Shown here: positions 3,286 through 61,706 of the stretch, in pieces
Position numbering within the stretch: the first letter of the stretch is position 1
Layout: each line of letters opens with the position of its first letter
From: an uncultured Bacilli bacterium
GTDB taxonomy: Bacteria; Bacillota_I; Bacilli_A; RF39; UBA660
NCBI GenBank assembly: GCA_947626035.1
Contig: CANQQR010000004.1
Location: forward strand, 1 to 61,706
Reading direction: 5' to 3'
DNA: 61,706 nucleotides
Notes under the pieces: model-generated
What the model was told of the DNA's origin: nothing
Databases searched by the model: none
What the model saw: only the letters and a program-made list of their open reading frames with translations
Program-made: the position numbers and the translations under genes

Positions 3286-3303
3286 TCAAATCCCCTCCAA
3301 AAT

Positions 3304-4833: not shown

Positions 4834-5008
4834 TTTCCACCACTTTCTTAAGCTTACGTTCAAACTCTATTCTATCCATCATAATAGTTCTACCACACTT
4901 AATACATCTAAGTTTAATATCAACACCCATCCTAATAACTTCCCAAGCATTCTCTCCACATGGATGTCCTTTCTTCATTACCACAATACTATTTAAGCCG
5001 TATTTCAT
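4823..5008 (-). CDS. DUF951-family small protein
   Basis: 61 aa. KKGHPCGENAWEVIRMGVDIKLRCIKCGR is the typical DUF951 motif. Conserved position between parB and ychF. Confidence 0.75.
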   Translation of the reverse strand: MKYGLNSIVVMKKGHPCGENAWEVIRMGVDIKLRCIKCGRTIMMDRIEFERKLKKVVENEK

Positions 5009-5015
5009 AAATCAC

Positions 5016-6678: not shown

Positions 6679-6877
6679 AATACTACCTCGCTATAAAATA
6701 ATTTTAGCACATTTAAGAGTATTTTAAAACATATTTTAACTCTATTTTTTTACCTTGTGCTCTTATATTATATAATAAGAAAAAAAACTAGTCACTAATA
6801 AATTAAAGATTTTTAAAAATATTTAAAAGAAAATAGAATAAAGAATATAAAAGAAAAAACAACACATACTAAAAAAG

Positions 6878-9367: not shown

Positions 9368-9475
9368 AATCAACACCACTTACATTTTAAAACATAAAAC
9401 ATAAAAAGTCAACATATTTTCTTACAGGAAAATAAACCCGCAAAAATTACTTCATATTTTCCTACAAGAAAACAT

Positions 9476-9503
9476 AGAAAAAGAGTAGAAAACACATCTA
9501 CTC
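9476..9503 (-). terminator. rho-independent terminator of ftsH (stem overlaps the stop codon)
   Basis: Coding-strand GAGTAGA-TGTGTTT-TCTACTC followed by TTTTTC. Confidence 0.6.
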
Positions 9504-11369: not shown

Positions 11370-11385
11370 AAGATTTCCTCCTCTT

Positions 11386-12711: not shown

Positions 12712-12724
12712 AACACTTTCTTCC

Positions 12725-13357
12725 TTAATCAGTCTCCACTACATAAAGTTTATTACTGTCCTTAATTAGATAAAATACACCACTACTCTCATACCCCATA
12801 TCAGTAACATATTCCCAACTAGCACTAGCCTTAAAAGCTTCATAACTCTGTCCATTATAATCATATGCCACGTCTTCTACACTACTAACATTAACATCCT
12901 TAACCTCAGGTAAATCTTGTACCCTATCTCCATAAACATTATTCTTAACATGATTATACATAGTATCTCCAGCATTAAGCTTAAAATTATCAAGAATATC
13001 AGGATGAACAAACTCTATTCCTCCAATATCACTACTAGTTAACTTATTACTAAGAGTATAAAAATCTGTAACAAAAAGCTTAGTTAAAATAGTAGCATAA
13101 CTATTATAATCTATTTCTTCCTTATTTAAAACATCTTTTAACTCATTAAAATACTTTTTATATAAAGAAGTATCTAAATCATCCAAACTATAACCATAAA
13201 CCTCCAAAGTATCTAACTTCTTCTTACTAACAACTTCCTTTTCATCCTTAACAACAAACTCAAGAACAAACTTCACACCAGTAACAACTAAAACAACCAA
13301 AATAAGAAAACCCATAACAGCATAAAACACTCTTGACTTATTAATAACCTTTTTCAT
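12725..13357 (-). CDS. membrane-anchored hypothetical protein
   Basis: 210 aa with an N-terminal TM anchor. No motif recognised. Confidence 0.5.
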   Translation of the reverse strand: MKKVINKSRVFYAVMGFLILVVLVVTGVKFVLEFVVKDEKEVVSKKKLDTLEVYGYSLDDLDTSLYKKYFNELKDVLNKEEIDYNSYATILTKLFVTDFYTLSNKLTSSDIGGIEFVHPDILDNFKLNAGDTMYNHVKNNVYGDRVQDLPEVKDVNVSSVEDVAYDYNGQSYEAFKASASWEYVTDMGYESSGVFYLIKDSNKLYVVETD

Positions 13358-13360
13358 TCC

Positions 13361-15475: not shown

Positions 15476-15504
15476 TATATCAAAATAATATGCACATTTT
15501 CAAC

Positions 15505-15548
15505 AAATAAAATAAAAAGACAAAAATATCTTTACATATTCCTGTCTT
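15505..15548 (-). terminator. rho-independent terminator closing the paralog locus
   Basis: Coding strand AAGACAGGAATAT-GUAAAG-AUAUUUUUGUCUU (13 pairs including two G-U) followed by UUUAUUUUAUUU. Confidence 0.7.
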
Positions 15549-16137
15549 AAGGTAACTTAGTTGTACCCTCTTTATAAGTATCATTATAATATAATGTACT
15601 ACCAGTAGTATCAACATAAAGTGTTCCATCAAACTTCTTACCTTGACTCTCATTTTGATTAACACTAGTTTCAGGCAATTCCATAGTAAGACTATAAGTA
15701 ATAACTGTCTCACTCTCACTTGGTGGAAAACTCTTATCAACTATCACAATATCTTTTTGTTCTCCACTACTATCTAACTCTATCTCTCCAACTGCACCAG
15801 AACCCTCAGTCTCACTAGTAACACTAGCAACAAGCCCTGGCATAGTATTAGTATACATTAACTTAATCTTAATAGGCCTTGTAGCATCACTAGCACTACT
15901 AGTAATAGTAAACGTCTTAGTCTCTTTCCAACTAGGCTCAATATTAGTTGCAGTCTTAAAATCAGCACCACCATCAAACTTAATAACACCAACATTAGCA
16001 CTACCAACATTAATAACAGGCTCGCCAGTAGTATTCATTTTAGCAGTAAAATAAGCGAAAGTAACACCAATAACCGTAACAATAACAGTCGCAATAGTCA
16101 ACACAACCAATATAATCTCATGCTTTCTACTCTTCAT
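15547..16137 (-). CDS. diverged TasA/camelysin-like secreted protein (paralog I)
   Basis: N-terminus MKSRKHEIILVVLTIATVIVTVIGVTFAYFTAKM (TFAYFT motif). Mature part carries EPSWKETKTFTIT and NESQGKKFDG, homologous to the PGW and QQG islands of the cassettes. Confidence 0.7.
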   Translation of the reverse strand: MKSRKHEIILVVLTIATVIVTVIGVTFAYFTAKMNTTGEPVINVGSANVGVIKFDGGADFKTATNIEPSWKETKTFTITSSASDATRPIKIKLMYTNTMPGLVASVTSETEGSGAVGEIELDSSGEQKDIVIVDKSFPPSESETVITYSLTMELPETSVNQNESQGKKFDGTLYVDTTGSTLYYNDTYKEGTTKLP

Positions 16138-16154
16138 AATAATTCCTTTCCAAC

Positions 16155-16760
16155 TTACAAATTAGGACTACCCTTAGCAATTATCTTACCCTCAAAAACC
16201 TTTCCTTGTAAATTATTTTGATTTTCTCCATTATCAAGAAATTTAACAGTCAATGTATATCTATGAGTAACACCGGTATTAATAGTACCAGTACCAATAC
16301 TAGAACTAGCACTAGGAACAATAAGTTCTCCAGGAATAGTAACCACCCTATTAGTATCACTTATAGGAACATTAACATCTCCTCTAAAACTAGTACTACT
16401 TAAAGTATAAACAAACGACTCATCATTAATAGTATTCTTATCAACATACCAATACAAAGTATAATCTCCAATAGCATTCTCAACTTGACTAACATTAGCA
16501 ATAGTAAACACTAACTCTTGACTCCAACCAGGTTCAACACTATCTGCATTAATATCATTCTCAGCATAAAAAGTAGTCATAATCTCTGAAACAGCTTGCA
16601 TACCAACCTCACCATTAGTATCATTACCAACAACACCAGAAAGCCAAAAAGCATAAGTAGTACCAACACTTACTGATATAAATGATAAAACAGAAACAAT
16701 AGCATAAATATAACTTCTAATAGAAAGCTTTAAATCATCTCTACTCTTTTTATCTTTCAT
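16155..16760 (-). CDS. diverged TasA/camelysin-like secreted protein (paralog H)
   Basis: Start moved to ATG 16760 (GGTGA SD): MKDKKSRDDL.., TM, GTTYAFWLSG. EPGWSQELVFTIAN and NNLQGKVFEG islands. Confidence 0.65.
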   Translation of the reverse strand: MKDKKSRDDLKLSIRSYIYAIVSVLSFISVSVGTTYAFWLSGVVGNDTNGEVGMQAVSEIMTTFYAENDINADSVEPGWSQELVFTIANVSQVENAIGDYTLYWYVDKNTINDESFVYTLSSTSFRGDVNVPISDTNRVVTIPGELIVPSASSSIGTGTINTGVTHRYTLTVKFLDNGENQNNLQGKVFEGKIIAKGSPNL

Positions 16761-16966
16761 ATAATCACCATATCTTACATATATTACTATATAATATAAT
16801 ACCAATAATTCCAAAAAAAAACAATACCAAAAGAAAAAAACACGCAAAAAATTAAATGACCCAATATCACTCTAAAAATAAAATAATAACCCCAAATAAC
16901 AAAAAACACACACTTCTACTTCCCCAAATAGTAAATTAACTATGTTCTTTCTTTCTCTTATCTCTT

Positions 16967-17617
16967 CTATTCTTCAAATGGATTTTTTTCTGTTCCTTGT
17001 GGGTTATCATTATTGTAGTAAATAGTATCGCCACTTGATAACTTACATGAAACTGTCGCTGCAATACTTGCTCCTTGTTGTTCATTTTGAGGAACTTCTG
17101 TTTCCTTGAAAGTTATTTTATATTTGAAGTTATGTACTAAATCACTTCCACTAGCATCTATTGTTCCAGTTGCTAATGGTATTGTTTGTGAGCCACCTGT
17201 AATCTTTACACCATCGCCATCTCCAGTGAATGCTTCATCAAGTTTAGCACCAGTTCCAGCAGTTGCAGTTACATACAAATCAGTAAAAGCAGTTTTTCCA
17301 TCGACACCTGAGTCAGCAGAAGCAGTATTTGAAGTAACTTCTAAATTACATACATAGTTAAATGTACTTTGACCCTTTGTTGCTGTTATAGTTACTGTTT
17401 GATCTTTACTGTCCCAACCTGGTAATATTTTAGTACCAGTTACAGCAGCAGTTTCATACTTAATTGTTCCTAGTTGTGCTGCTCCAACTTCTACATTTGC
17501 AGGATTACCTTGCATTGTTGTAGTGAAATATGCAAATGTAGCACCGATTATAGCAACTAAAAGTGTAGCAATTCCAATTACTGATAAGAATATAGTTTGC
17601 CCTCTATTATCTCCCGT
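16967..17617 (-). CDS. cassette G: full-length secreted-protein frame lacking a canonical start (ACG at 17615-17617)
   Basis: The frame is open from the TAA at 17648-17650 down to the stop at 16967. It encodes ..TGDNRGQTIFLSVIGIATLLVAIIGATFAYFTTTMQGNPANV... I found no in-frame ATG/GTG/TTG upstream of the internal Met used by the ORF track. Confidence 0.6.
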   Translation of the reverse strand, partial: TGDNRGQTIFLSVIGIATLLVAIIGATFAYFTTTMQGNPANVEVGAAQLGTIKYETAAVTGTKILPGWDSKDQTVTITATKGQSTFNYVCNLEVTSNTASADSGVDGKTAFTDLYVTATAGTGAKLDEAFTGDGDGVKITGGSQTIPLATGTIDASGSDLVHNFKYKITFKETEVPQNEQQGASIAATVSCKLSSGDTIYYNNDNPQGTEKNPFEE

Positions 17618-46864: not shown

Positions 46865-47374
46865 TTATTTTTCCTTACTAAATATAGACAAAACTCTACC
46901 AACAAAATACGTTATATCATTAGCATTTTTAATTGCAATTTTTTTACCAATAGCCTTTCCACCAACAGTCAAACTAGATAAAATAGAAGACAAAATAACA
47001 TTCCACATAGATAAATTATTAGACAAAAACAAATTAACCACTAAAACAGTAACTAAACTACCACTAACAATTCCACACACATCTCCTACTACATCATTAC
47101 AAAAAGAAGAAACACTACTAGAATTTTTAATTAACCTAATCGCCGTCCTAGCACCTTTTATCTTTTGACTAGCTCTAGAATGAAATGCCTTAATATCACA
47201 ACTAAGAACAGCAACACCTATAACATCAAAAATAATACCTATAACAAGAATAGATAAAATACATATTACCAAAACAAAATTATTAAAATTACCTAAAAAA
47301 TTAGATATCAAACTAAAAATAATAGCAAGCACAAATGTTAAAATAAAAACTTTAATCGTCCAATTATCTTTCAT
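46865..47374 (-). CDS. polytopic membrane protein (possibly CNNM/DUF21-related)
   Basis: 169 aa, 4 TM. AFHSRASQKIKGARTAIRLIKNSSSVSSFCNDVVGDVCGIVSG recalls short CorB-annotated proteins. Assignment is uncertain. Confidence 0.4.
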   Translation of the reverse strand: MKDNWTIKVFILTFVLAIIFSLISNFLGNFNNFVLVICILSILVIGIIFDVIGVAVLSCDIKAFHSRASQKIKGARTAIRLIKNSSSVSSFCNDVVGDVCGIVSGSLVTVLVVNLFLSNNLSMWNVILSSILSSLTVGGKAIGKKIAIKNANDITYFVGRVLSIFSKEK

Positions 47375-47399: not shown

Positions 47400-47912
47400 C
47401 TTCCTAATTTGAAAGTTCCTTTAACTATATTCAAAAATATTTAATTTTAATGGTATATTATAAATCAATTTTATGGTTTAGGTCGAGTTGAATTTCTCCA
47501 TTTTCTACTAAAAGTTACCCGTTAGCGATTTCTCTTTAAAGAAAATGACTAATCGTTACCGAATTAATTACTCGATTGCCACTTAATCCATACTCTAATA
47601 CTTATAATATGTACACTCTAGAGATTTTCTCAAACATCAGGGATTGTCCTTATTCGCTTTTGCAATAATGATTTCAATTAATCTTAATAATCATTAACAT
47701 TCCACAATTATCACTCACGACAAGAAATATAACAAAAAAATGACTTAGTAAAAGGAATTTAATTATATGCCATTATAACGATTCCTTAAACTTAAAATTA
47801 TATACTCACCCTAACCTGGGCGGAAAAAGCAAATATACAAAGTGTCTCATTCTATTGATAGATTTTTAGCCCTACCTTCAAACAATATGATGACTAGAAT
47901 AATGCACCACGC
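47400..47912 (-). ncRNA. unassigned structured RNA or long 5' leader downstream of a consensus promoter
   Basis: No ORF of 60 aa or more on either strand. Multiple 7-bp or longer local stems. Weak hairpin plus T-run just before the SD of the 47374 gene. Confidence 0.35.
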
Positions 47913-47917
47913 TATAA

Positions 47918-47946
47918 ATTATAACAAATTTTATAAAATATGTCAA
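47918..47946 (-). promoter_or_regulatory. perfect consensus sigma-A promoter
   Basis: Coding strand TTGACA (47946-47941), a 17-nt spacer ending TGT, then TATAAT (47923-47918). Confidence 0.75.
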
Positions 47947-47981: not shown

Positions 47982-49098
47982 TTAAAAATGACTTAAAATA
48001 TTATCAGTAACTAAAATAACTTTCTTGCCCAAAGATTCACAAAACTTAGAATCAAGAATTCTCTTAACAATATGTTTTTCAAAAAATTGCCTAATTAAAT
48101 CAATAACAACACCTACCACAAAAATAACTAAAGTTGTAAACAAAATATGAACAAAAAATTTACTTGTATAAATATATTGATAAGTCTTAAAAAAATCTCT
48201 CCAAATATAAACTTCCAAAAGTCCATCATGAAGCAAATAAAGCCCTAAAGTTGTAGATGCCAAAGAAGTAATAATCCTACTATACTTAATTTTAAATTTC
48301 AAAAACAAAGAAAATATAGAAACACTAAGCAAAAACAATAAAACACTATTAGGATGCCAAAAATAAGCAGGTTCATAAAGTCCAATCTTTTCAAAAAAGT
48401 TACTATACTTATTAACTAACAATATAAACAAACATAAAAATACTGATAAACACAAAATACTATAAATTAATCCTTTAACATTAGAAAGAATTTTAGGTTT
48501 ATATATTCTTATATAAGAACCAACAAAATACAAAACAATAAACCACAAAAACCTAGAAAAATATAGTAAATTCTCTGAACTATTTTTAAAAATACCAAAA
48601 ATAGTAGGAAACACACACCAAATAATCAAAATTACAAATATAAACTTTCTAAATTTTTCTCTATCTAAATTATCAATTAATATATTTAAATAAGGAGAAA
48701 TTATAAATAACAAAATATAACAAGTAATAAACCAAAACCTATTAGAAATAACAGGAAAAAATAATAAATCTTCTACAAACAAATCTTTAAATGTTAGTAA
48801 CCCCCCCCGATTAATAAGGAATATAGCCGTTAACCAATAATAAAACTGTACTTCCAATATTAACAAAATTAACTTTTTAAAAGAAAACTTCTTTTTTTTT
48901 ACACATAAAATAACCACTAATTAAAACAAATAAATTAACACCTAATTCTCCGAAATAATACATAACTTTTATCACATAAGCATTAATATTAAAATTAGTA
49001 AAATCATACCCACTCTTAAAAGCATAATGAAACATTATAATTAATAAAATAGATATTATTTTTAATAAATCTAAATTAGACTCACGAACATTTTTCAT
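47982..49098 (-). pseudogene. acyltransferase family 3 (OafA/YrhL-like) gene split by a frameshift in an A9 tract
   Basis: The N-terminal ORF (48877-49098, ..ISGYFMCKKKEVFF*) and C-terminal ORF (47982-48917) overlap at T9 48892-48900. Deleting one A gives ..GYFMCKKKKFSFKKLILL... About 10 TM segments in total. Confidence 0.75.
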
Positions 49099-49990: not shown

Positions 49991-50380
49991 ATGGCAACAA
50001 TATCTACTGGAATTAATTTAGATGCTAATCTAATGAATCTTAAAGCAATTGATATAAAAGAAGTTAGACCAGAAATACACGAATTACTAATCACTAATGA
50101 AAAAATAATGTTTGCATTTCAAACTATTCGCGACCAAGTAATTTTTACAAACAATCGTATTTTTGTAGCAAATGTTAAAGGAATAAGTGGTAAAAAAATA
50201 GCGTATTTCTCTTATCCATATTCCAAAATACAATATTATGGAATAGAAACAGCAGGTCTATTTGACATTGATAGTGAACTAATCATTGCTTTTAGTAATG
50301 GAACTAATCTACAATTCGATTTTAAATCTAATGTCGATATCAAATCAATAAGTTCACTTATTTCTAGTTATATTTTATAA
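49991..50380 (+). CDS. bacterial PH-domain (bPH/YokE-like) protein
   Basis: 129 aa. ..EKIMFAFQTIRDQVIFTNNRIFVANVKGISGKKIAYFSYPYSKIQYYGIETAGLFDIDSEL.. GAGG SD. Confidence 0.6.
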   Translation: MATISTGINLDANLMNLKAIDIKEVRPEIHELLITNEKIMFAFQTIRDQVIFTNNRIFVANVKGISGKKIAYFSYPYSKIQYYGIETAGLFDIDSELIIAFSNGTNLQFDFKSNVDIKSISSLISSYIL

Positions 50381-50440
50381 AATAACAAAAATAAGAGTAA
50401 TAAAAGTGACACCATAAACAAATGTCACTTTTTCATTTTA

Positions 50441-51820
50441 TTAAATAAATCCAGGAGCAAGTTCTTCAGTTACATCTTCAAAATCTGTGCTAATCTCTTT
50501 TGATTCAAGATTAAATAAAGTTTTTTCAAAGAAAAATTTAATATCACACTTTGATTTATCAGGAGCAACACTATACAAATTTTCATTCCTCTTGTACAAA
50601 CCTTTAACATAATCAAAATCAACTAAACATTTTATTTGTTCTTTTACTTCTTTCTTATCATCTTCATTAGTAAAACCAATTACTGTATAAAAATGAACTT
50701 TAGTATCATTAAAATTTGTACACTTACAATCGTATAAAGCTTTATTCCTATAATCAATTCTTTCTGTAAGAGTTGTTATATCATACTTCTTTGGAGTCTC
50801 ATCTTCTTTATAATCCAGAAAAGCTTTAATATCTTCAAGATGTGTCATAACGCCATTATTACCAAGAATAACAGAATCATCCACTTTAATTTCAACTAAA
50901 TAAATATCACTTACATTAAATATTTTTTCCTTCGTCATTTTATATTTATAAAATATGCAATCAATTCTTCCAGTTTTATAATCTTTCTCGTTTTTCTTAC
51001 CTATTATTGGATTTTTATTTATAATTCCATATTCTTGTTCAAAATGTACTACAACCTCATCATCTTCACGCGGAAATAAAGCTTTGCTTTCATTAGCTTT
51101 TAACATGAAATAATGTTGGTACTTCTTTTCTAATTTATCAGAAGATTTATAATTTGATATACCCATTTTAATATGTGAAATAAAATCAGAAAATTTAATA
51201 CCTTTATCAAAATCAATACTAATATCAAATTTATCATCTTTAGTTATAGTATCAAATCTACTTTTATATTTAAATAATTCTATATACTTACACTGTATTG
51301 TAACAATATCTCGAGGTTCACTAATAGGTTGATCAAACTTAATTATATACTTTGTTTCTTTATTTTCTTTAATCGAAAAACTACATCCTATATTATATCT
51401 TTCTTTAACAAATAATTCAAAATCATTTCTTACCTTTTCATATTTATCTTTATTAGTTGAATTTTCATTTAAACAATAAGAAATTCCATTAAATGAAAAA
51501 CTAGTAAATTCTAACAATCCATCCATTAAACTTATCTTACTTTCTTTATATTCTTCTAATTCTTCATTTTCTTTTTTCCTTACATCAGTTGTATTACATT
51601 TATAAACATTGACAGGAAACTCCAACTTAGCCTTTCCTCCATCATTTACTACATCAAATGCTTTAATCCCATTATAATAAGCAATATTGGATGCTTTATC
51701 TTCGTCCGTATCATTTTTATCTTTATCATTATTAGCTCTAACTCTTAAAATAAAACCATCTAACTCTTTATTATTATAAAAATTTTTTATAAATTCATCA
51801 AAATCAAAATTTGTTTTCAT
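50441..51820 (-). CDS. hypothetical protein with C-terminal PD-(D/E)xK nuclease-like motif
   Basis: 459 aa. ..HFEQEYG..GRIDCIFYKY..(20 aa)..IYLVEIKVDD (D287, E310, K312 in ORF numbering). AAGGAG SD. Separated by 14 nt from the upstream MBL gene. Confidence 0.6.
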   Translation of the reverse strand: MKTNFDFDEFIKNFYNNKELDGFILRVRANNDKDKNDTDEDKASNIAYYNGIKAFDVVNDGGKAKLEFPVNVYKCNTTDVRKKENEELEEYKESKISLMDGLLEFTSFSFNGISYCLNENSTNKDKYEKVRNDFELFVKERYNIGCSFSIKENKETKYIIKFDQPISEPRDIVTIQCKYIELFKYKSRFDTITKDDKFDISIDFDKGIKFSDFISHIKMGISNYKSSDKLEKKYQHYFMLKANESKALFPREDDEVVVHFEQEYGIINKNPIIGKKNEKDYKTGRIDCIFYKYKMTKEKIFNVSDIYLVEIKVDDSVILGNNGVMTHLEDIKAFLDYKEDETPKKYDITTLTERIDYRNKALYDCKCTNFNDTKVHFYTVIGFTNEDDKKEVKEQIKCLVDFDYVKGLYKRNENLYSVAPDKSKCDIKFFFEKTLFNLESKEISTDFEDVTEELAPGFI

Positions 51821-51834
51821 ATCTAAATTCTCCT

Positions 51835-53070
51835 TTATACTTGAATTACTTCTTTTTCTTTAACTAAAACGACATTATCTAATACTTCTTTTAATTTTTC
51901 AGGTTCAGTTGTATGAATTGGTATAACTTTTTTTGCATGTAATCTATTAAGTAATTTTATTGTCTTTCTATCTGCATGACCTGACGTATGTAAATCAATT
52001 ATATCTTTAACACCATACTTATTAATTTCCTCTAAAAATTTTTTTGTCTCTGGTTCTTTCTTATACCCATCCCACATTGAATAAATAAGGCAAGCATTAT
52101 CAATGAAATTTTTATTATACAATTTTATAATAGATTCCAACATCGAAGTTTTAATCAGTAAACAATATTTCTTATCTTTATAAGATTTTTGTTTAGATCT
52201 TTCTTTAAATTTATAAACATACTTTTGTTTAAATCTTTGACTTTTATCTTTCCCATATTTACTAGTTATCCAAGTATAAACATTATCTCTATTAAATGGA
52301 TTAGGTATAGATTCATCCTTTAAACTCAATGTTAAATTCGAAGTAAAAATATCTTCTATAAATGTTTTTCCTGTCTCAGTTGCAACATTATAAAAAACTT
52401 TAAGTCTATCAATATTAGTTGACGACTGCAATATAAAGACTTGATTATACTTATTAAAAATTTCTTTAGCTCTTTCCATCAAGTGTTCCTCTGTTTCATT
52501 AACTACATCTTCTCTACTTAAGGAAGTGCCCTCAGTTACAATAATATCAACACTACCAATCTCTTTTAAAGTATTATCAAATTCATTACCTCTTAACCCA
52601 TTGCATCTAAAGTCTCCAGTATGAAGCATCCTTTTACCATCACACTCAATTAAAAGCATACAAGAATTATAAGCAGAATGATCAACAAAGTAAGGCGTAA
52701 CTACCATATCATTTATTACAATAGATTTATTAAGTTTCATATCATTAGTTTTAAACCTAATACCTTGATAAGTAAATACTCCCAATAATTTATAAACAAT
52801 TTTAGACATTGGCTCAACATAAACTGGAATATCGTCAAGAATATGATCAATTAAACCAATATGATCACTATGACTATGGGTAATAAATACTGCATCATAT
52901 TGCTTAATACCTGTAGTTAACCCAACAATATTAGGATTTTCTTTCTTTATTTGATTATCTCCTTCTAAATCAGAACCAAAATCAATAATTATTTTTGTCC
53001 CCTTACTACTTACGACTTCAGTAACACAACCTCCTATTTGTTTTGTTCCCTTTATAATCTGTACTTCCAC
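51835..53070 (-). CDS. beta-CASP-type metallo-beta-lactamase-fold nuclease
   Basis: 411 aa. FITHSHSDHIG (HxHxDH), VDHSAYNS, LHTGDFR, VTEGT, LHTSGHAD, VIPIHT. This is the MBL motif 1-4 and beta-CASP A/B/C pattern. Confidence 0.7.
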   Translation of the reverse strand: MEVQIIKGTKQIGGCVTEVVSSKGTKIIIDFGSDLEGDNQIKKENPNIVGLTTGIKQYDAVFITHSHSDHIGLIDHILDDIPVYVEPMSKIVYKLLGVFTYQGIRFKTNDMKLNKSIVINDMVVTPYFVDHSAYNSCMLLIECDGKRMLHTGDFRCNGLRGNEFDNTLKEIGSVDIIVTEGTSLSREDVVNETEEHLMERAKEIFNKYNQVFILQSSTNIDRLKVFYNVATETGKTFIEDIFTSNLTLSLKDESIPNPFNRDNVYTWITSKYGKDKSQRFKQKYVYKFKERSKQKSYKDKKYCLLIKTSMLESIIKLYNKNFIDNACLIYSMWDGYKKEPETKKFLEEINKYGVKDIIDLHTSGHADRKTIKLLNRLHAKKVIPIHTTEPEKLKEVLDNVVLVKEKEVIQV

Positions 53071-53351
53071 TTTTGTAATACCTCCATAATTTCTTTATTA
53101 AAACCTTATATTCTAAATATTCACAAACAATAAATATTAACTAAAACTTATTTAAAATATCAAACTCTATCAACATTATATCATACGCTTTTATAACAAC
53201 AAAGTTTAATTTATCATATTAAAAAGAACTTTCAACTACACAAATTTATACACCATTTATATTATCATTATTATATTTTGTTATTACTTCATAATATTTT
53301 TTTATAAAACTTTTTAATTTCAACATATCTTCTTCCTTTATACTTATTTCT

Positions 53352-53561
53352 CTATTTATAACACACAATTGCCAAATTAGTCATTATAATATAGTACATC
53401 CAAAATATTTGTTTTACTTCAAACTCTGATATATCAACATTCCAATAATCTATTAACAGTTGTTTATGTGTTTTTATATATACTTCATCAAAATTTCTCA
53501 CTTCTTTTAAATTTTTTAAAATCTTAACATGTTTAATATCAACAGTTAAAAAAACATTCAA
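53352..53561 (-). CDS. hypothetical small ORF (possibly a fragment of a decayed gene)
   Basis: 69-aa ORF with no motif. Adjacent short in-frame-like fragments at 53580-53713 and 53260-53340. Confidence 0.2.
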   Translation of the reverse strand: MNVFLTVDIKHVKILKNLKEVRNFDEVYIKTHKQLLIDYWNVDISEFEVKQIFWMYYIIMTNLAIVCYK

Positions 53562-53735
53562 AACCCCATTTCTTAACTTTTATTTAAAAAATAAATCCTT
53601 TTAATCTTTCTTTTCCATTATAAACTAAATACAAAATTATATCAGTATAATCTTCATTTTCAAAAGAAATTGTTGCTTTAAATAAATTATTTATCATTTT
53701 ATCTTTTAATTTCATTATTAAACATCCGTTAACTA

Positions 53736-55922
53736 TCATTGATATTTTTGCATTATTTCAATAAAAATCCTTGGAAATTTAGCCTTATACCAAGAAAATT
53801 TATACGCAATTAAAGTATATGAGACAACATGTGATTTTAATGGTAAATAGCCAATATTTTCTAATTTAAATACATCTTCAGAAGAAATTTTATTAAGCAA
53901 AAATTTTTTATAATTATTCCAATTTTCTAAATCATTTATCTTTTCTTTTCCAATAAAATTCATTATTTCATAAGCTTTATCATACTCAACATTATGTTTA
54001 AGCAAAAACAATAAAATATCTTCACGATAAACTATTATATCTTTAATACTTTCCTTATTTTTTAACAACTTATTAATTTTATTTGTTATACCACCACTAT
54101 GCAAAAGTCCAATTACTTTAACTAAATCAGCAAAATTCTGAGGTTTTATAATATTAATTATAGTTTTAGCATACACATCATCAAATTCAAATAAATATTT
54201 CGTATCTTTCTTATTTATTAAATCAAAAACAATTTGTTCATTTAATGGTATATCTTCTAATTTAACTTTAGTTAAATCTTCTAATTCCTTTAGTATTGTA
54301 GGTACTCTATGGCCTAATACATCAAACTTAATAATAATTGAAACAAGATCATGATAATCAAAATGTGTGCTTAAATAATTATAAATATTATTGCTATGAG
54401 GATAATTACAAGGTGTAAAATCATATACTTCCTTATTTTTAGATATTAAAAATAATCCACCTGGATGTTGTCCAATATTCTTAAACTTACCTTCTAATTT
54501 ATGAATTAAACTAACTTTTTCACGATTAGTTAAACCTCTTTGCATAATTTTTTCTTTAATACTAATAGGCCGCATAAGTCCTATAACTCCGGCTTTAATC
54601 GTATAATCATTGCCCCAAAAATCGATTAAATAATTTATTAAATCTTTTTGAATATAATCAGCAAAATTAACATCAATATCTGGAATTTTCTCAACATTTA
54701 ATCCTAAAAAATTTTCATAAGGAATATTAAATCCATCTTTTTTTAATTTACTATAACACTTCGGACATTTTTTATCAGGCATATCTATTCCATAATTATA
54801 ATTTAAAGCATCATTAAAATAAAAATTTTTACACTTAGAACAATAATAATGAGGAGGAAGTGGATTTATGCTAGTAATTCCCAATAAATATGCAACAAAA
54901 GAAGATGCAACACCACCTCTAACAAATGACGGATACCCCATATCATAAGACTTATCTACTAACTTTTTATATATTAAAAATAAAGACTCAGTATTAGTAT
55001 TAATTATTCCATATTTATTAGAAGCATCGTTACCATATAACTCTTCATTTAATCTCTGGGTAATAATGCTTGGAATATTTTTATCGCACATCTCATTCAA
55101 TCTTTTATTTATAATATACAATATTTTATTTTTGCTATCTTTAATTTGAGGTAAATAACATTTATCATCAATTATTTTTATATCTTTTATTAAACTTGCA
55201 AGTTTATTAGTATTCGTAATAACCAGTTCATATGCTAACTCTTCATCTAAAAAACTAAAATCATCTAACATTTCCTTAGTTGTTTTTAAATAATTAACTA
55301 GTTTATCATCCTTAAATAATTTCTTATAATCATCCCTTTCTTCTTTCTTTAAATAACACACATTAAGAGAAGCTATAACAATCTTATGAATATCTTTAGC
55401 AATATCTATTATTCTTTTTAAATAATTCTTATCTAAAGCTGAATTAACTTCAATAAAATCCCACCATACTAAATCATCTTTAACTTGATAATCTTCCAAA
55501 TCATCATATATTTCTTCCATGTAAGATAAATTTAATCCATATAATAACCCATCACTTAAAAACACTAATTCATCTTTAGTAATAACCTCTTTTCCATATT
55601 TATCTAAATTATCTGTTTTAATCTTAGTAATTATTTTATATAAATTTTTTAATCCTTCTTGAGCTCTTACTAATATAGTAATAGGAATAACTGTTTCAAA
55701 CACAAGCATATTTACTACTGCACCATAAATAATCTTAAACTCAGTAATATTATTAGTTTTAAGATATTTCTCTATTTTAGGAAAATTATACACATTATTA
55801 AAATCAGTAATAGCTACTTTATTTAATCCTATACTTTTTGCATAATTGATTAATTCTTTAAAATCAACAATACTATTCTTTGTCATTTTAGTAAAAACTT
55901 TAAATTCTACTCTTTCTAACAT
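53736..55922 (-). CDS. PolC-like DNA polymerase III alpha core lacking the exonuclease, N-terminal and C-terminal domains, with a degenerate PHP domain
   Basis: GYPSFVRGGVASSFVAYLLGITSINPLPPHYYCSKC..CPKC..KKDGFNIPYENFLG..KIPDIDVNF, GQHPGGLFL..VYDFTPCNYP, HFDYHDLVSIIIKFDVLGH. PHP ligand positions read VEFKVFTKMT and ITDFNNV. Confidence 0.75.
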   Translation of the reverse strand: MLERVEFKVFTKMTKNSIVDFKELINYAKSIGLNKVAITDFNNVYNFPKIEKYLKTNNITEFKIIYGAVVNMLVFETVIPITILVRAQEGLKNLYKIITKIKTDNLDKYGKEVITKDELVFLSDGLLYGLNLSYMEEIYDDLEDYQVKDDLVWWDFIEVNSALDKNYLKRIIDIAKDIHKIVIASLNVCYLKKEERDDYKKLFKDDKLVNYLKTTKEMLDDFSFLDEELAYELVITNTNKLASLIKDIKIIDDKCYLPQIKDSKNKILYIINKRLNEMCDKNIPSIITQRLNEELYGNDASNKYGIINTNTESLFLIYKKLVDKSYDMGYPSFVRGGVASSFVAYLLGITSINPLPPHYYCSKCKNFYFNDALNYNYGIDMPDKKCPKCYSKLKKDGFNIPYENFLGLNVEKIPDIDVNFADYIQKDLINYLIDFWGNDYTIKAGVIGLMRPISIKEKIMQRGLTNREKVSLIHKLEGKFKNIGQHPGGLFLISKNKEVYDFTPCNYPHSNNIYNYLSTHFDYHDLVSIIIKFDVLGHRVPTILKELEDLTKVKLEDIPLNEQIVFDLINKKDTKYLFEFDDVYAKTIINIIKPQNFADLVKVIGLLHSGGITNKINKLLKNKESIKDIIVYREDILLFLLKHNVEYDKAYEIMNFIGKEKINDLENWNNYKKFLLNKISSEDVFKLENIGYLPLKSHVVSYTLIAYKFSWYKAKFPRIFIEIMQKYQ

Positions 55923-56051: not shown

Positions 56052-56831
56052 TCATAAATTAGTATCGGTTACCTTTAATATTCTGTCATCCTCAGTAAAT
56101 TCAATAGACGTATCTTGTCCAAAAAGATTAATAGTAGCTTTAATATTGTTATAATCTAAATCAATTTCGTCAATTACAGCTTGAAGCCCTTGAAATGGTC
56201 CAGTTAAAATTTTAACTTTATCACACTCCTTAACATCTTTAAATGAAGTCCATTCACTTACTAGCTCCTCTTGACTATTTTTTCGATGCGTTTTTACATT
56301 AAGCCAAACACCTAGTTTAACATGATTAGATTTCACTAAAGGAACATCATAACCCTTAAAATACTTATTAATACAATACATTTCATATTCGGTAGATAAT
56401 CCACGATAAACAGGAGCATCATACCCATAATAAGTAGATGCACAAGATATATACTTTTGAACATCAATAGAATCTTGGTGTTCCTTTAATAACTTACATT
56501 GATCAATAATATTATCTTTAGAATCTAAAAGTTTCTCTATATAATCCATATTATAATCAGCTGGAGTAATAATACTAAGAGAATCAGGAATAATTAAAGG
56601 TTCTTCCTTATCTTCCACTTCTAAACCATAATAATACTTAACAATACAATATAAAATATACTTAGCATCTAAATCATAATCACGAAATGTATTTGCTAAA
56701 ATAAGTCTATCAATATATTGTCTTACCCCTTTCCTATATTTAACCTTGCTTAATTCCTTTAGTTGTTCAACAATATTGTCCTTGCTATCAACTATTTTTT
56801 TGACATACTTATTCGAGCGAGCGCAGTTCAT
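56052..56831 (-). CDS. KOW-domain (NusG-like C-terminus) protein with internally duplicated N-terminal region
   Basis: C-terminus DKVKILTGPFQGLQAVIDEIDLDYNNIKATINLFGQDTSIEF equals the NusG KOW pattern. Start at ATG 56831 behind AAAGGAGG. Confidence 0.6.
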   Translation of the reverse strand: MNCARSNKYVKKIVDSKDNIVEQLKELSKVKYRKGVRQYIDRLILANTFRDYDLDAKYILYCIVKYYYGLEVEDKEEPLIIPDSLSIITPADYNMDYIEKLLDSKDNIIDQCKLLKEHQDSIDVQKYISCASTYYGYDAPVYRGLSTEYEMYCINKYFKGYDVPLVKSNHVKLGVWLNVKTHRKNSQEELVSEWTSFKDVKECDKVKILTGPFQGLQAVIDEIDLDYNNIKATINLFGQDTSIEFTEDDRILKVTDTNL

Positions 56832-56954
56832 TAAAGTTTTTCCTCCTTTCAATATAACAAGTATACACCACTTTTTTCAAATCCTTTTAAACGACATAAA
56901 AAAACACATTACTTTCCCAGTTTAAAAGAAAATAATGTGGTTTTTATACTTGTA

Positions 56955-57971
56955 TTAATGTATAATATACCATTCATTTTTACTAAAATCATAACCAATA
57001 TTTCGATATATTTTATTACAATCTATCATATATCTTTCAACTTGTCTTATTGAAACATTAAATTTATTAGCTAAAACACTAGATTTTATAGCTTTTTTAC
57101 CCTTCAAAAATTTATTTATGCTAGAAAGAATTTTAATTTTAGATGACGTAAAATTTATCTTTTCAGTATCTAAAATATAATCATAATATAATTCAGTTAT
57201 ATCATAATCATCAAGAATTTCATTTATAAAATAAATATTAGTATATTTTATGTGACTTTGTCTAATCTTTTCCTCATCATCAGTAATAATATAAACTAAA
57301 TTAAAATGATTAAATAACTTGCGGTATTTTTTATCAATATCTATACAATCTTTAACTTCTAAAAATTTATCATAAATAATTAACAAAAATCCTTGTTTCC
57401 TTTGAAGAGCATCAATATTTTTGACTTTTTTAATATAAGGAAAATGAAAAAAATTATTATCTTCAACAATATCTCTTTTATCAGTAAGAAATCCATTATA
57501 ATCCCCACATATATAAACATTTCTTCCTACATGTTCTAAACCAATACTTTTTTTATAAAATTCTACTTTAACAAAAGAATATTCACCACTATGTAATTTT
57601 TCTAATAATTCATTTTGCAATTTAAGAGCTTGATCATAAGATACATTTTCTCTTTCACATAATATTCTCAATATTTTAGGATTTACATAAATAAATATTA
57701 TTAACTCGCATGGAACAAATTTATTACTAAAAAGTGGGTCACCTTTTTTTACTTCAATTAAATTTTCAACAGTCTTAACATCATTTTGATTCATTTTAAC
57801 ATAGCCATACTTAGAAACAAATAAATCATCTAACACTTTATAATATAATTCACCCATTTTTAACTGATATTTTAAAATTTTAAAATCCATTCCAATAGTC
57901 CCTAATATCAACACACTTTTATCCGTATTTTTCATTAATATTTTTTTAATTTCCTTATATTCTTTATTCAT
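56955..57971 (-). CDS. hypothetical protein with C-terminal HTH (putative regulator)
   Basis: 338 aa from ATG 57971 (AGGTG SD). C-terminal SSVLANKFNVSIRQVERYMIDCNKI. Confidence 0.5.
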   Translation of the reverse strand: MNKEYKEIKKILMKNTDKSVLILGTIGMDFKILKYQLKMGELYYKVLDDLFVSKYGYVKMNQNDVKTVENLIEVKKGDPLFSNKFVPCELIIFIYVNPKILRILCERENVSYDQALKLQNELLEKLHSGEYSFVKVEFYKKSIGLEHVGRNVYICGDYNGFLTDKRDIVEDNNFFHFPYIKKVKNIDALQRKQGFLLIIYDKFLEVKDCIDIDKKYRKLFNHFNLVYIITDDEEKIRQSHIKYTNIYFINEILDDYDITELYYDYILDTEKINFTSSKIKILSSINKFLKGKKAIKSSVLANKFNVSIRQVERYMIDCNKIYRNIGYDFSKNEWYIIH

Positions 57972-58160
57972 ATCAGCACCTATTCCTTTCACTTCACACA
58001 AGGCGTATAGTTTTTCAATCTTTTAATTAATAAATAACATATTAAGTCCTCTAAATTAAAAGATGTCAACCGCTTATAACATTGTGACATCCTTTATTTA
58101 ACGTATTTATTAGCACTTTTAAATTTTCTATTAAATTAAATCGCTTAAAATTCCTTATTA

Positions 58161-58208
58161 ATGCATTTTTTCCACAACAGTTCTTGTATTTCTTCCCACT
58201 TCCACATG
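58161..58208. repeat. 48-bp direct repeat copy 1 (reverse strand encodes a SEC-C motif CGSGKKYKNCCGKNA)
   Basis: 44 of 48 nt identical to 59825-59872 by manual alignment. Confidence 0.85.
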
Positions 58209-58397
58209 TCGTGCATATTCCAATATTTATAGTATTTATGGTATTTATTATTATTGTTGCTATAATTTTTTTTCATTTGCAAACATTTAGCAAACTTTGT
58301 TTGCATCCGTTTACTATCACAATGTACTACTTTGTTAATTGTTTAGAAATATCTCTTTTCCCAACATATACTTATTATAACTTATTAAAAACTCCCT

Positions 58398-59333
58398 CTA
58401 CAATAATTCCAAATATTTCTTTAACATTTCTATCTCTAATCCATTTATCAATTTAACAAAATCAGTATAATCTTTCGTTGTATGTGCTTTATCTAAAGCT
58501 TCATAATATTGTAATCTATTTTCTTTTTTTATTATTACAGGATTAAAGCCATGTTTCATCAAATCTAAATTCATAATTAATCTTGATGTTCTCCCATTTC
58601 CATCAACAAAAGGATGAATTTTAACAAGTTCACCATGCAATAATGTAGCTCGAATTATTGGATGATATTTATTCCAAGTTTTATAATTTAAAATTAATTT
58701 TTCCATTAACTCAGGAACTTTTACAAAGTCTGGTGGAATATGAGTTGCTCCTTTTATAGTTACATTTTCACTTCTATATCTTCCAGCATTTTCATCATCA
58801 ATTTCTTTTAATATAAGAGCGTGTATATTTTTAATATTCCACTCAGTAATTGGGTCATCATCCTTTACTAAATCATTTAAAAACAAAATTGCGTGTTCGT
58901 GATTTATAGCTTCTAAGTGTTCCTTTATTGATTTTCCTCCAACAGTAATTCCTTCTAAAACTACTTGAGTTTCTTTTAAAGTCAAAGTATTTCCTTCTAT
59001 ACCATTACTATTATAAGTCCATTCCAAATTAATTTTTTCTTGTAGAGTTCTAAGTGTATCTTTTGGTATAGGTCTTTTATTATCAAGTTCTTTTTTTAAA
59101 TTGTCTACTTCATCAAAAAAATTATCTGGCAAATTAATAATAAAATCATTGTGATCTGGTTTTATAATCCTTTTATCAACTGGTTTTAGTGCATCAATTG
59201 GGATATTCCAACTATTTCCATTTTTGACTGCACCTTCTATTCTTCCTTCTTTTAATAATTTTCTTATTCTTCTTTCGCTAATATTCCATTTTAGAACAGC
59301 TTCTTTTGTAGTTATAAATTCCAAAGATATCAC
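58398..59333 (-). CDS. Fic-family protein with N-terminal excisionase/MerR-like HTH
   Basis: HPFVDGNGRTSR Fic motif. N-terminal ITTKEAVLKWNISERRIRKLLKEGRI. The likely real start is the TTG at 59324 behind GAGGTGA. Confidence 0.85.
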   Translation of the reverse strand: MISLEFITTKEAVLKWNISERRIRKLLKEGRIEGAVKNGNSWNIPIDALKPVDKRIIKPDHNDFIINLPDNFFDEVDNLKKELDNKRPIPKDTLRTLQEKINLEWTYNSNGIEGNTLTLKETQVVLEGITVGGKSIKEHLEAINHEHAILFLNDLVKDDDPITEWNIKNIHALILKEIDDENAGRYRSENVTIKGATHIPPDFVKVPELMEKLILNYKTWNKYHPIIRATLLHGELVKIHPFVDGNGRTSRLIMNLDLMKHGFNPVIIKKENRLQYYEALDKAHTTKDYTDFVKLINGLEIEMLKKYLELL

Positions 59334-59641: not shown

Positions 59642-59824
59642 TTTAACCATCTCCTTTCATATTAGTAATTAGTACTTGCTAAAACAAAAAGGAATGTTAA
59701 CATTCTATCTATGTTAACACTCCCTTATTTATAAGTGTTTTAGCTATTTTTTCAACTTATGCAAACAAAATCAAATTTCGCTATCAATATAATTTTTCAT
59801 AAAATTAATAAAGACCCTTTATTT

Positions 59825-59872
59825 ATGCATTTTTTCCACAACAATTTTTGTATTTCTTACCACTCCCACATG
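59825..59872. repeat. 48-bp direct repeat copy 2 (SEC-C motif, ends in TAA at 59823-59825)
   Basis: See 58161-58208. Only a 21-codon ATG ORF (59823-59888) remains. Confidence 0.85.
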
Positions 59873-60160
59873 AACTTGTTACTCCCATATTATCAGTATT
59901 ATTTATATTTATAATATTATTGATATTTCAATGTTTTTAGGACTAGGTAACATTTATATTATCAGTATTTATTGTATTATTTTTATTATAAATATTTATC
60001 TACTGTGGACAAATCGTGGACAATGTCCACATCCGTTCACTGCAGCAATTATATTACATATAATATAAAAATCAAAATGTGTGGATTCTTTCTCCCGTAC
60101 ATTTGACATTTATATTATATCATTTAAAGAAAAGATATTCAATAAGCCTCAAAAAATTTA

Positions 60161-60248
60161 CAGGATAAAATCATGAAAAAATAAAAGAAGAACATTTAAA
60201 ACTATATAGAATATGGTTTTTAGATGTTTTTTTCTTTAAAAATTTACT
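60161..60248. repeat. IS left terminal inverted repeat
   Basis: caggataaaatcatgaaaaaataaaag.. is the reverse complement of 61542-61629, with 87 of 88 positions matching. Confidence 0.9.
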
Positions 60249-60284
60249 ATATTGATTTAAAATTGATGTAGGGTGTAATAGAAA

Positions 60285-61541
60285 ATGAATAAATATAATC
60301 GATTAAATATAACAAAAGAACAAATGAGATATTTAAAAAAGAAACTAAAGATAACGAAAATGGAAGACATAGAGACAACTGTCCTAAAAGATTTGAAAGA
60401 GACATTTAAGGAATTAAAAGATCGAAGACAAAAATCAAAAACTCATTATAAAATATGGGATATTGTATGTTATGTGATTTTTGCCCAAATGTCCGGTGCA
60501 GAAGATTGGGAAGATATAGAAGAATTTATCAATTATCATTATGATTTTTTTAGAAAGTTCTTATTGATGACAGGAGGAGTTCCGAATTATCAAACGATAG
60601 AAAGAGTAATGTCTATCATTGATAGTCATGAACTTGAAAATATGTTAGTTGAATTTATCAAAAAAATCACGTTTAATGAAAAAACAGAAACAGAAATTTT
60701 AAATATAGATGGAAGAGTAGATTGTGGAAGTAGTAGAAAAGAAACAAACTATCATGGAAAAACATCACCATTAAATGTACTAAATGTTTACTCTAATAAT
60801 TATGGTATGTGTTTAGCAAGTGAGATGATAGAAGATAAAACAAATGAAATAACAACTATACCATCAATATTAGAGCGTTTAAATATAAAAGATACAGTCA
60901 TAACATGGGATGCATTAAATACACAAAAGAAAAATGTAGAAATAGTGAAAAGCAAAAAAGGAAATTACGTTGTGCCAGTTAAGAAAAATCATCCAAACTT
61001 TAATGCTGATTTAGAGTTATATTTCAATGAAAAAACACAAGAAGAAATCATAGCAGGAAGAAGTGATAGTGCGTATTTAAAAGAAATGGAAAAAAGCCAT
61101 TCTTGTTATATAACCTATGAATATTTCCAAACAACTGATGTAAAGTGGTACAGTGGACATAAAGAATGGAAAGGGTTAAATAGCTTTGGTATGGTAAAGA
61201 AAACAATTGAGAGAAACAAAGAAACAATTGTTGAAAAAAGATTTTATATATCAAGTTTGTTTATAGATATAGAGTTATTTTCAAAATCAATAAGAAATCA
61301 TTGGAGTATAGAAAATAAATTACATTGGCATTTAGATTTTACTTTTAGAGAAGATAAGAATACTACACAGAATAAGAAAGCATTGATGAATTTGCAGCTT
61401 ATTAATAAATTTTGTCTAGGAATATTTAGTAGAATAAAGTCGTTTTATAAAAATAAAAGTTTACGTCGAATGAAAAAAATTATGGGAATGGATTTTGAAG
61501 GAATCTTAATAAAAAACATATGTTATTTATTACTATCTTAA
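60285..61541 (+). CDS. ISAs1-family transposase (DDE)
   Basis: 418 aa. The N-terminal FKELKDRRQKSKTHYKIWDIVCYVIFAQMSGAEDWEDIEEF matches the DDE_Tnp_1_assoc signature. C-terminal HWSIENKLHWHLDFTFRED. Confidence 0.8.
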   Translation: MNKYNRLNITKEQMRYLKKKLKITKMEDIETTVLKDLKETFKELKDRRQKSKTHYKIWDIVCYVIFAQMSGAEDWEDIEEFINYHYDFFRKFLLMTGGVPNYQTIERVMSIIDSHELENMLVEFIKKITFNEKTETEILNIDGRVDCGSSRKETNYHGKTSPLNVLNVYSNNYGMCLASEMIEDKTNEITTIPSILERLNIKDTVITWDALNTQKKNVEIVKSKKGNYVVPVKKNHPNFNADLELYFNEKTQEEIIAGRSDSAYLKEMEKSHSCYITYEYFQTTDVKWYSGHKEWKGLNSFGMVKKTIERNKETIVEKRFYISSLFIDIELFSKSIRNHWSIENKLHWHLDFTFREDKNTTQNKKALMNLQLINKFCLGIFSRIKSFYKNKSLRRMKKIMGMDFEGILIKNICYLLLS

Positions 61542-61629
61542 AGTAAATTTTTAAAGAAAAAAACATCTAAAAACCATATTCTATATATTTTTAAATGTTC
61601 TTCTTTTATTTTTTCATGATTTTATCCTG
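61542..61629. repeat. IS right terminal inverted repeat
   Basis: See 60161-60248. Confidence 0.9.
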
Positions 61630-61706
61630 AAAAATTTATTCTTTAATTTCATATTGAATTACTTTATTTATTATTTCTGATTTTATTATATCATCAAATA
61701 CGTCTG

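Follow-up and report, generated by a model that had tools for sequence, protein, structure and literature searches.

A beta-CASP and putative PD-(D/E)xK nuclease pair is the conserved core of a PolC-linked gene cassette in an uncultured Bacilli bacterium

Two neighboring genes on contig CANQQR010000004.1 of an uncultured Bacilli bacterium (assembly GCA_947626035.1), analyzed here over 61,706 nucleotides (nt) and referred to as the window, encode a beta-CASP metallo-beta-lactamase (MBL) nuclease and a putative PD-(D/E)xK nuclease, the latter called the partner in the following. This nuclease pair forms the conserved center of a larger gene cassette, apparently undescribed, that is organized around a PolC-type polymerase. 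A first-pass annotation had described the two genes as a two-gene operon; they represent the 3'-end of a conserved cassette of 5 to 8 genes that also encodes polymerase, KOW and helix-turn-helix (HTH) proteins. The pair provides the invariant catalytic part of this horizontally mobile cassette, and our comparison firmly established that polymerase chemistry is optional across cassettes while the nuclease sites are invariant. It is quite possible, if somewhat short of probable, that the cassette constitutes a nuclease-centered, PolC-coupled conflict or defense system. The window copy comprises the following features, given in the direction of transcription.

56955 to 58001, minus strand: C2 protein, 348 amino acids (aa), first cassette gene, from an alignment of 21 homologs.
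56905 to 56939, minus strand: terminator-like hairpin between C2 and C3 (consensus scan: 14 stem pairs, then a T run).
56052 to 56852, minus strand: C3 protein, 266 aa, with a tandem repeat at the N-terminus and a NusG-type KOW domain (KOW and nusG C-terminal matches).
53736 to 55922, minus strand: PolC-type polymerase, truncated to a PHP-palm-fingers core of 728 aa (Pfam matches to PHP, DNA_pol3_alpha and finger domains).
53249 to 53715, minus strand: pseudogene of the small ATPase-like cassette gene C4 (frameshift and internal deletion).
51835 to 53070, minus strand: beta-CASP MBL nuclease, 411 aa, GTG start with GGAGG upstream.
51821 to 51834, minus strand: 14-nt spacer with an AAGGAG Shine-Dalgarno (SD) motif, read directly from the sequence.
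50441 to 51820, minus strand: partner protein, 459 aa, ATG start.
50402 to 50432, minus strand: terminator-like hairpin directly after the partner stop codon, operon end (consensus scan: 12 stem pairs, then a T-rich tail).

Membership of the nuclease pair in a PolC-centered cassette was firmly established by a gene-set survey, in which phmmer searches with the window proteins covered 38 fetched loci and a wider annotation with seeds covered 46. Co-occurrence was counted in 27 loci seeded by the partner and in 8 contexts seeded by the MBL. The cassette genes are arranged in the order HTH protein C2, KOW protein C3, none to three DnaB-C-like ATPases, family-C polymerase, MBL and partner; the ATPase-like proteins are small paralogs that resemble the C-terminal domain of DnaB. 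C2, C3, polymerase, MBL and partner were found together in most of the partner-seeded loci, and C2 co-occurs with the MBL, as does C3 in most loci. All 8 contexts sampled independently via MBL homologs (L008, L011, L039, L042, L045, L047, L055 and L057) contained the cassette, 7 of them with a Pol III alpha-type gene. A permuted order, partner-C2-(C3)-...-MBL-polymerase, was observed in L018 to L025 and in L030, where the gene set is kept and the nuclease genes are not adjacent. The window copy is a reduced form, C2-C3-polymerase-(C4 pseudogene)-MBL-partner, co-oriented and contiguous. Its closest relative, L050 (MBL 83% and partner 60% identical), shows the same reduced layout.

Within the window, the MBL and partner genes are, judging from the sequence, translationally coupled via the SD-containing spacer. 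Physical coupling was also found elsewhere. Loci L029 and L034 encode a single protein of 1,036 aa that consists of an MBL (39% identity to the window MBL, E-value 9e-76) and the partner nuclease domain (hhalign 99.9%), and P0254 (768 aa) represents a second, shorter fusion architecture. Relatives of the partner are encoded directly 3' of MBL homologs in L008, L039, L055 and L057 (hhalign 98.2-98.9%), and these MBL homologs are only 48-65% identical to the window MBL. In L011 and L042 the MBL is followed by proteins of about 225 aa with a 'GRID...LIELK' motif, whose matches are non-significant, and on Butyrivibrio and Rhizobium plasmids distant MBL homologs (25-31% identity) adjoin D...ExK proteins. 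Because they are fused in two different architectures, MBL and partner very likely act together. A conserved, physically coupled pair of a beta-CASP and a D...ExK nuclease is firmly established, and the functional coupling proposed in the first-pass annotation is borne out by the spacer, by conservation as neighbors and by the fusions in L029/L034 and P0254.

The beta-CASP assignment of the 411-aa protein is solid on motif grounds. Its HSHSDH motif lies at exactly 52861-52878, and the other MBL/beta-CASP motifs are DH (residue 130), HTGD (150), TEG (179), HTSGHA (361) and PIHT (384); both open reading frames (ORFs), the 14-nt gap with AAGGAG and all motifs quoted previously are present in the sequence. 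The seven catalytic motifs were invariant in 30 of 30 cassette-associated and plasmid relatives. They cover motifs 1-4 of the MBL superfamily (D30, H65-S-H-S-D-H70, H131 and D153) and the beta-CASP motifs A, B and C (TEG with E180, HTSGHA with H361/H365, PIHT with H386). Pfam Lactamase_B_2 (2.8e-13) and Lactamase_B (1.1e-12) matched above their cutoffs. The RMMBL match was weak (17.7 bits versus a cutoff of 21.6), and the beta-CASP assignment therefore rests on the motifs and on alignments to RNase J. By sequence, EF2904 (2az4, 2.7e-13) comes closest among solved structures, followed by RNase J (3.4e-10). NCBIfam and PDB searches placed the protein nearest to RNase J, aCPSF1 and the uncharacterized EF2904, far under ortholog cutoffs. 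The RNase J models NF047419 and TIGR00649 gave 53.6 bits (cutoff 820) and 45.8 bits (cutoff 400), the RNase J model alignment is restricted to residues 6-238, and the RNase J C-terminal domain is absent. The score with the ComEC model was 21 bits, far under the cutoff of that model. The MBL family is large, with more than 4,800 clusters matched, and the best 120 are about 410 aa long, in some cases with additional domains, and 46-85% identical. Among longer homologs, P0102, P0105 and P0118 (577-585 aa) as well as P0125 and P0128 (519 aa) carry extensions. A reading of these as C-terminal nuclease fusions proved wrong, as the extensions are N-terminal. By eye they resemble the palm start of Pol III alpha ('SLVLYILGLT...') or the PolC zinc ribbon, a likeness that is not significant (BLAST E-value 0.066).

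The partner belongs to a rare and unannotated family, represented by 148 sequences in a full hidden Markov model (HMM) scan of 1.84 billion protein representatives; none of its 42 close homologs is named. AlphaFold2 models suggest three parts: at the N-terminus a small, conserved beta-rich domain, then a ferredoxin-like domain, and at the C-terminus the putative PD-(D/E)xK domain (about residues 205-459). The confidence (pLDDT) is 88.7 for the model of the whole chain and 91.3 for that of residues 205-459. In an alignment of 32 homologs, E231, K232, E261, E263, D287, E310, K312 and H327 are invariant, which places the E..D..ExK motif far beyond chance; E261, E263, D287, E310 and K312 constitute the PD-(D/E)xK sequence signature. 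The predicted core has the topology alpha-beta-beta-beta-alpha-beta (helix 229-244, strands 256-268, 282-295 and 300-313, helix 324-335, strand 374-382), with D287 on the predicted beta2 and E310/K312 on beta3. The PD-(D/E)xK assignment is well motivated by the motif and this predicted topology. Hence, of the two nuclease assignments in the first-pass annotation, the beta-CASP one is solid and the PD-(D/E)xK one is carried by motif and topology. Two details of that annotation need correction. Of the motifs it placed within 50882-50971, GRIDCIF (50951-50971) and LVEIKV (50882-50899) lie inside this range but EQEYG (51026-51040) lies just outside. The N-terminus, described as lacking a recognizable domain, has no database match but is conserved, with R26, R28, Y48 and G51 invariant.

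Sequence and profile comparisons of the partner with Pfam, NCBIfam, PADLOC, PHROG and PDB returned no match; the partner profile in particular had zero matches in PDB. A single one of the 32 family members weakly matched Pfam PDDEXK_9 (1.3e-4). Foldseek comparisons of the full model with PDB and BFVD, and of the C-terminal domain model with PDB, gave no significant match. The best E-value was 0.03, and matches to McrC, Avs3 and LmuA were weak and non-significant.

Aligned with a bona fide PolC of 1,590 aa, the window polymerase covers residues 669-1442. It scores 482 bits with the NCBIfam PolC equivalog model (cutoff 873 bits), and only the PHP-palm-fingers core is present. It keeps PDIDVNF, KFDVLGH, the catalytic Asp residues and the zinc finger. 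The DnaQ exonuclease insert is absent and the PHP metal ligands (HxH, TDH) are lost; PHP and DnaQ proofreading are lost throughout the window clade. Since the Asp residues are retained, the window polymerase is potentially active but without proofreading. In other cassettes, the catalytic residues themselves are affected. In the L013 polymerase all three catalytic Asp are replaced by Asn (PNININY, KINMLFH), in that of L039 two are replaced, and the polymerases of L014 and L032 are probably inactive as judged from their sequences. The ORFs of all four are intact (590-690 aa), and they apparently represent catalytically dead PolC-derived proteins held under selection. Bona fide PolC was found in L018/L045, L042 and L038 (1,705, 1,717 and 1,523 bits, respectively), and L042 and L038 encode DnaE-type enzymes besides PolC. 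In L042 to L044 (about 3258-17061) and in L038, the genes for the DnaE-type enzyme and the full-length PolC share a block with cassette genes, which sit between or next to them. This block is preceded by a gene for a YhcG-family nuclease, the family of the L039 gene that matches PDC-S02.

For C2, neither Pfam nor PDB gave a match, and a C-terminal HTH-like segment is conserved among the 21 homologs. A reading of C2 as a WYL regulator like that upstream of the Butyrivibrio pair was rejected, as the sequences are dissimilar. The family profile of C3 matched NusG KOW structures (5e-11), whereas no NGN domain was detected; its N-terminus is a family-specific tandem repeat. C3 was therefore rejected as a NusG paralog (antiterminator of the NusG/RfaH/LoaP family), as the KOW domain alone is present. 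Searches with phmmer suggested a homology between C3 and the polymerase, which BLAST did not reproduce and which was discarded. Lying within the operon, the C2-C3 hairpin may act as an attenuator. Between polymerase and MBL, ORFs of 51, 69 and 40 aa are pieces of one gene, C4: in tblastn, residues 1-55, 55-112 and 176-213 of the 226-aa C4 protein of L001 matched in different frames, with 113-175 missing.

The flanks of the cassette are unrelated from locus to locus. In the window, the cassette is bounded by a Fic gene and an insertion sequence (IS) on one side and by a gene for a bacterial PH-domain protein (bPH) on the other.

58398 to 59333, minus strand: HTH_17-Fic gene, immediately upstream of the cassette and not part of it (Pfam Fic 8e-23; PADLOC SoFic 1.3e-31 and PDC-S04 1.9e-36).
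60153 to 61637: IS with a DDE_Tnp_1 transposase (60285-61541, plus strand) and 99-nt inverted repeats, 96% complementary.

The Fic gene, the IS and an XRE-type HTH protein noted earlier for this neighborhood were found again; an integrase remnant reported for the window was not recovered with three recombinase seeds. Ten variable neighbors of cassettes were scanned with PADLOC, of which 6 matched defense or defense-candidate families, a small sample without a background set. Among these were the window Fic protein (SoFic, PDC-S04), YhcG (PDC-S02, 5e-125), a NUDIX protein (PDC-S07) and an AAA_14/DUF4143 protein (PDC-S01, 5e-100). Weaker matches were those of a Macro protein to DarG and of a 526-aa protein in L006 to PDC-S62. 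The plasmid homolog pairs adjoin McrBC/WYL, restriction-modification (R-M)/GIY-YIG and DUF262 genes.

Several other features were observed around the window cassette. A direct repeat of 130 nt (58122-58251 and 59786-59915) brackets the Fic gene, with 72% identity and a near-identical 34-nt core. The core has only two copies in the window and was absent from the 54 fetched loci. Because no other locus has the repeat, it was rejected as a regulatory or attachment (att) element of the cassette. A bacterial PH-domain protein (bPH_1/bPH_3) is encoded near the cassette in three unrelated loci (window 49991-50380, plus strand; L039, 16414-16812; L055, 1860-2321), which may be coincidence. An Acyl_transf_3 gene (47982-49098, minus strand) is split into ORFs of 73 and 311 aa at an A9 tract (about 48891-48899). 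This is the gene previously described as phase-variable; the split is consistent with slipped-strand phase variation or with a sequencing error. A full-length OLE RNA (Rfam RF01071, 204.8 bits, model positions 1-616) is located at 47434-47926 on the minus strand. It is followed by an ORF for a 169-aa membrane protein (46865-47374, minus strand) with a weak CNNM match, at the position expected for oapA.

As the nuclease sites are invariant and polymerase chemistry is optional, the polymerase-derived protein would mainly serve as a recognition or adaptor module. In the mechanism we propose, the PolC-derived subunit, together with the ATPases where present, would act as a module for recognition of DNA structures or of the replisome. 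It may bind primer-template or fork-like replication intermediates and deliver the nuclease pair to the bound DNA. There the partner, as a PD-(D/E)xK enzyme, would nick the DNA and the MBL would resect it as a beta-CASP 5'-3' exo/endonuclease. We infer complex formation with the polymerase, the nature of the substrate and the role in defense. The window cassette is reduced, partly decayed and acquired, and it lies beside a SoFic-like gene and an IS; conflict with, or defense against, replicating foreign DNA is therefore its most likely function. As a more tentative proposal, possible rather than probable, the cassettes could define a new class of multi-gene conflict systems in gut Firmicutes. 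In such systems a PolC-derived protein, often proofreading-less or dead, would sense replication intermediates or the replisome itself, or act as an adaptor for them. It would control a beta-CASP and PD-(D/E)xK effector, fused or coupled, with KOW and HTH proteins as regulators.

A number of observations weigh against a conflict or defense role. For the PD-(D/E)xK fold of the partner, neither structure nor profile comparisons gave a significant match. Cassette genes lie beside bona fide PolC/DnaE in three or more lineages (L018 group, L042 group and L038), and the L018 and L042 groups are flanked by housekeeping genes (der, dus, lysS, ackA, nrnA-like; efp, spoIIGA-sigE). These copies fit a role in replication or repair at least as well. 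The PDC-S families are candidate families and common on mobile DNA, the sample of neighbors is small and stands without background comparison, and PADLOC models match none of partner, C2, C3 and polymerase. The earlier suggestion of a defense module is partly supported in that mobile copies adjoin defense-associated genes, but homologs are polymerase-linked and in several lineages located among housekeeping genes. Taken together, mobile and decaying copies with defense-type neighbors favor conflict or defense, and syntenic copies adjacent to polC/dnaE favor a replication or repair accessory.

Possible rather than probable is a replisome-associated repair or processing module, in which the nuclease pair and a PolC-type polymerase would cut, resect and resynthesize DNA at stalled forks, crosslinks or primers. 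The cassette would be ancestrally chromosomal and polC-linked, and the window copy a paralogous or transferred derivative. Consistent linkage of the pair to family-C polymerases, adjacency to bona fide polC/dnaE in syntenic housekeeping settings and the presence of DnaB-C-like ATPases agree with this model. The first-pass annotation had held that homologs consistently found in housekeeping RNA-processing or DNA-repair contexts would speak against defense, and the family-C linkage, with some copies beside polC/dnaE, partly corresponds to that situation. Furthermore, the window polymerase keeps its catalytic Asp and lacks proofreading, which a nuclease acting in trans could complement. Analogous cases are the beta-CASP nuclease SNM1, which works with a structure-specific nuclease and translesion synthesis (TLS) polymerases, and the patchily distributed imuA-imuB-dnaE2 cassette with its dead polymerase homolog. 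However, several cassettes have a catalytically dead polymerase and no other, and the patchy distribution, variable flanks, gene decay and defense-associated neighbors also weigh against a repair module. Moreover, polymerase-free pairs of MBL and nuclease occur on plasmids and in L006, L015, L017 and L031.

Unlikely, but compatible with part of the data, is a replication or recombination module that belongs to a phage satellite or an integrative mobile element. The cassette would replicate this element, and the nucleases would process its DNA ends or recombination intermediates. Genes for a serine recombinase, a resolvase, a tyrosine integrase, an excisionase-like HTH_17 protein and an XRE repressor adjoin the cassette in L001/L016, L008/L009, L023, L028 and L036. 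In L001 a block between host genes comprises the cassette together with a collagen-like gene and a recombinase, and the window copy is flanked by the IS and the HTH_17-Fic gene. On the other hand, many loci have no recombinase within 10 kb, the polymerases of several cassettes are dead, genes for a primase, a clamp or structural proteins were not seen, and some copies are syntenic in housekeeping regions. Neither nuclease was matched by tblastn in 50,697 phage genomes (INPHARED), and a pattern scan of IMG/VR with the partner returned nothing; a phage origin was rejected on these grounds. Polymerase matches in 'phages' were generic PolC-like fragments of about 30% identity.

Quite improbable is a stand-alone two-gene defense module, for which the pair would be sufficient and the upstream genes unrelated. 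It would account for pairs without a polymerase in L006/L007, L015, L017 and L031 and for the distant plasmid pairs of MBL and D..ExK proteins beside R-M and McrBC genes. Yet in the window and in L050 the pair is contiguous and co-oriented with C2-C3-polymerase, and the five gene families co-occur even where the order is permuted and the nucleases are separated (L018 to L025 and L030). The N-terminal MBL extensions with by-eye likeness to polymerase segments point weakly in the same direction. A housekeeping enzyme of RNA processing, paralogous to RNase J and assisted by an accessory protein, is suggested by the best named relatives RNase J1 and aCPSF1 and the weak RMMBL match, but is highly unlikely in view of the RNase J scores far under cutoffs, the missing RNase J C-terminal domain, the linkage to DNA polymerase genes and a DNA-nuclease-type partner, and the mobility and patchy distribution of the gene set.

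So far, the enzymes of this sort recruited to bacterial immunity have for the most part been reverse transcriptases and primase-polymerases. Should the cassette be a conflict or defense system, the family-C, replicative-type polymerase scaffold would join them, and a new two-nuclease effector would be added. With a PolC-derived sensor, it would be the first immune-type system on such a scaffold. If it instead assists repair or replication, it would reveal hitherto unknown PolC partners in Firmicutes. Either way, a testable function is provided for a large unannotated MBL family and for a rare orphan partner family without a Pfam model, and both nucleases are best studied together and alongside the polymerase gene.

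In comparison with known proteins, the MBL shares motifs 1-4 and the beta-CASP motifs A, B and C (HxHxDH, H131, D153, E180, HTSGHA, H386) with RNase J, aCPSF1, SNM1/Artemis and EF2904. Unlike RNase J, it has only about 410 aa and no C-terminal domain, is paired with or fused to the partner, and is linked to PolC. With PD-(D/E)xK nucleases such as NucS, Shedu SduA, Cap4, McrC and YhcG, the partner appears to have in common the E...D...ExK motif on an alpha-beta-beta-beta-alpha-beta core. In contrast to these, its predicted beta-hairpins are unusually long, and the N-terminal and ferredoxin-like domains are family-specific. The NucS/Shedu/Cap4 type assigned in the first-pass annotation could not be upheld, as no specific similarity to Shedu, Cap4 or NucS was found with Pfam, PADLOC and NCBIfam models, including DUF4263, or by fold search.

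No named defense system matches the pair, in agreement with the first-pass annotation, and no system-like match to a catalogued anti-phage system (PADLOC-DB 2.0) was obtained for the cassette. Component B of PDC-M48 was the sole PADLOC match of the MBL (E-value 4.4e-4). This match spans only the generic MBL N-terminus (residues 14-76) and the other cassette proteins are unmatched, so that it is not evidence of membership. No PolC/MBL/nuclease cassette was found described in the literature searched. From Clostridia, PolC variants that lack the exonuclease and additional divergent copies have been reported, without linked MBL or nuclease genes, and what role the exonuclease-less variants play has been an unanswered question since 2013 (PMC3919608).

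Modules of the HamM MBL and a trypsin-like protease occur in Hachiman, AVAST, Lamassu and DRT systems, and HamM-type MBLs are ComEC-like proenzymes activated by the fused protease (PMC12799240). In the literature searched, the MBLs known from defense are of this ComEC-like, protease-activated kind. The cassette resembles these modules in that an MBL-fold nuclease is encoded beside a functional partner within a larger multi-gene system. Unlike in HamM, the MBL is beta-CASP/RNase J-like and the partner is a second nuclease; a protease domain was not present in the cassette. The imuA-imuB-dnaE2 cassette (PMC12926913) is likewise a patchy, transferable operon with a family-C polymerase and a RecA-fold ATPase-like protein, and the likeness extends to the dead polymerase homolog in some of our cassettes. 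In contrast to imuA-imuB-dnaE2, the polymerase is PolC-derived, a Y-family ImuB is missing, the two nucleases are invariant, and some cassettes have no active polymerase. Compared with these systems, the cassette appears to be undescribed and to combine known folds in a new architecture.

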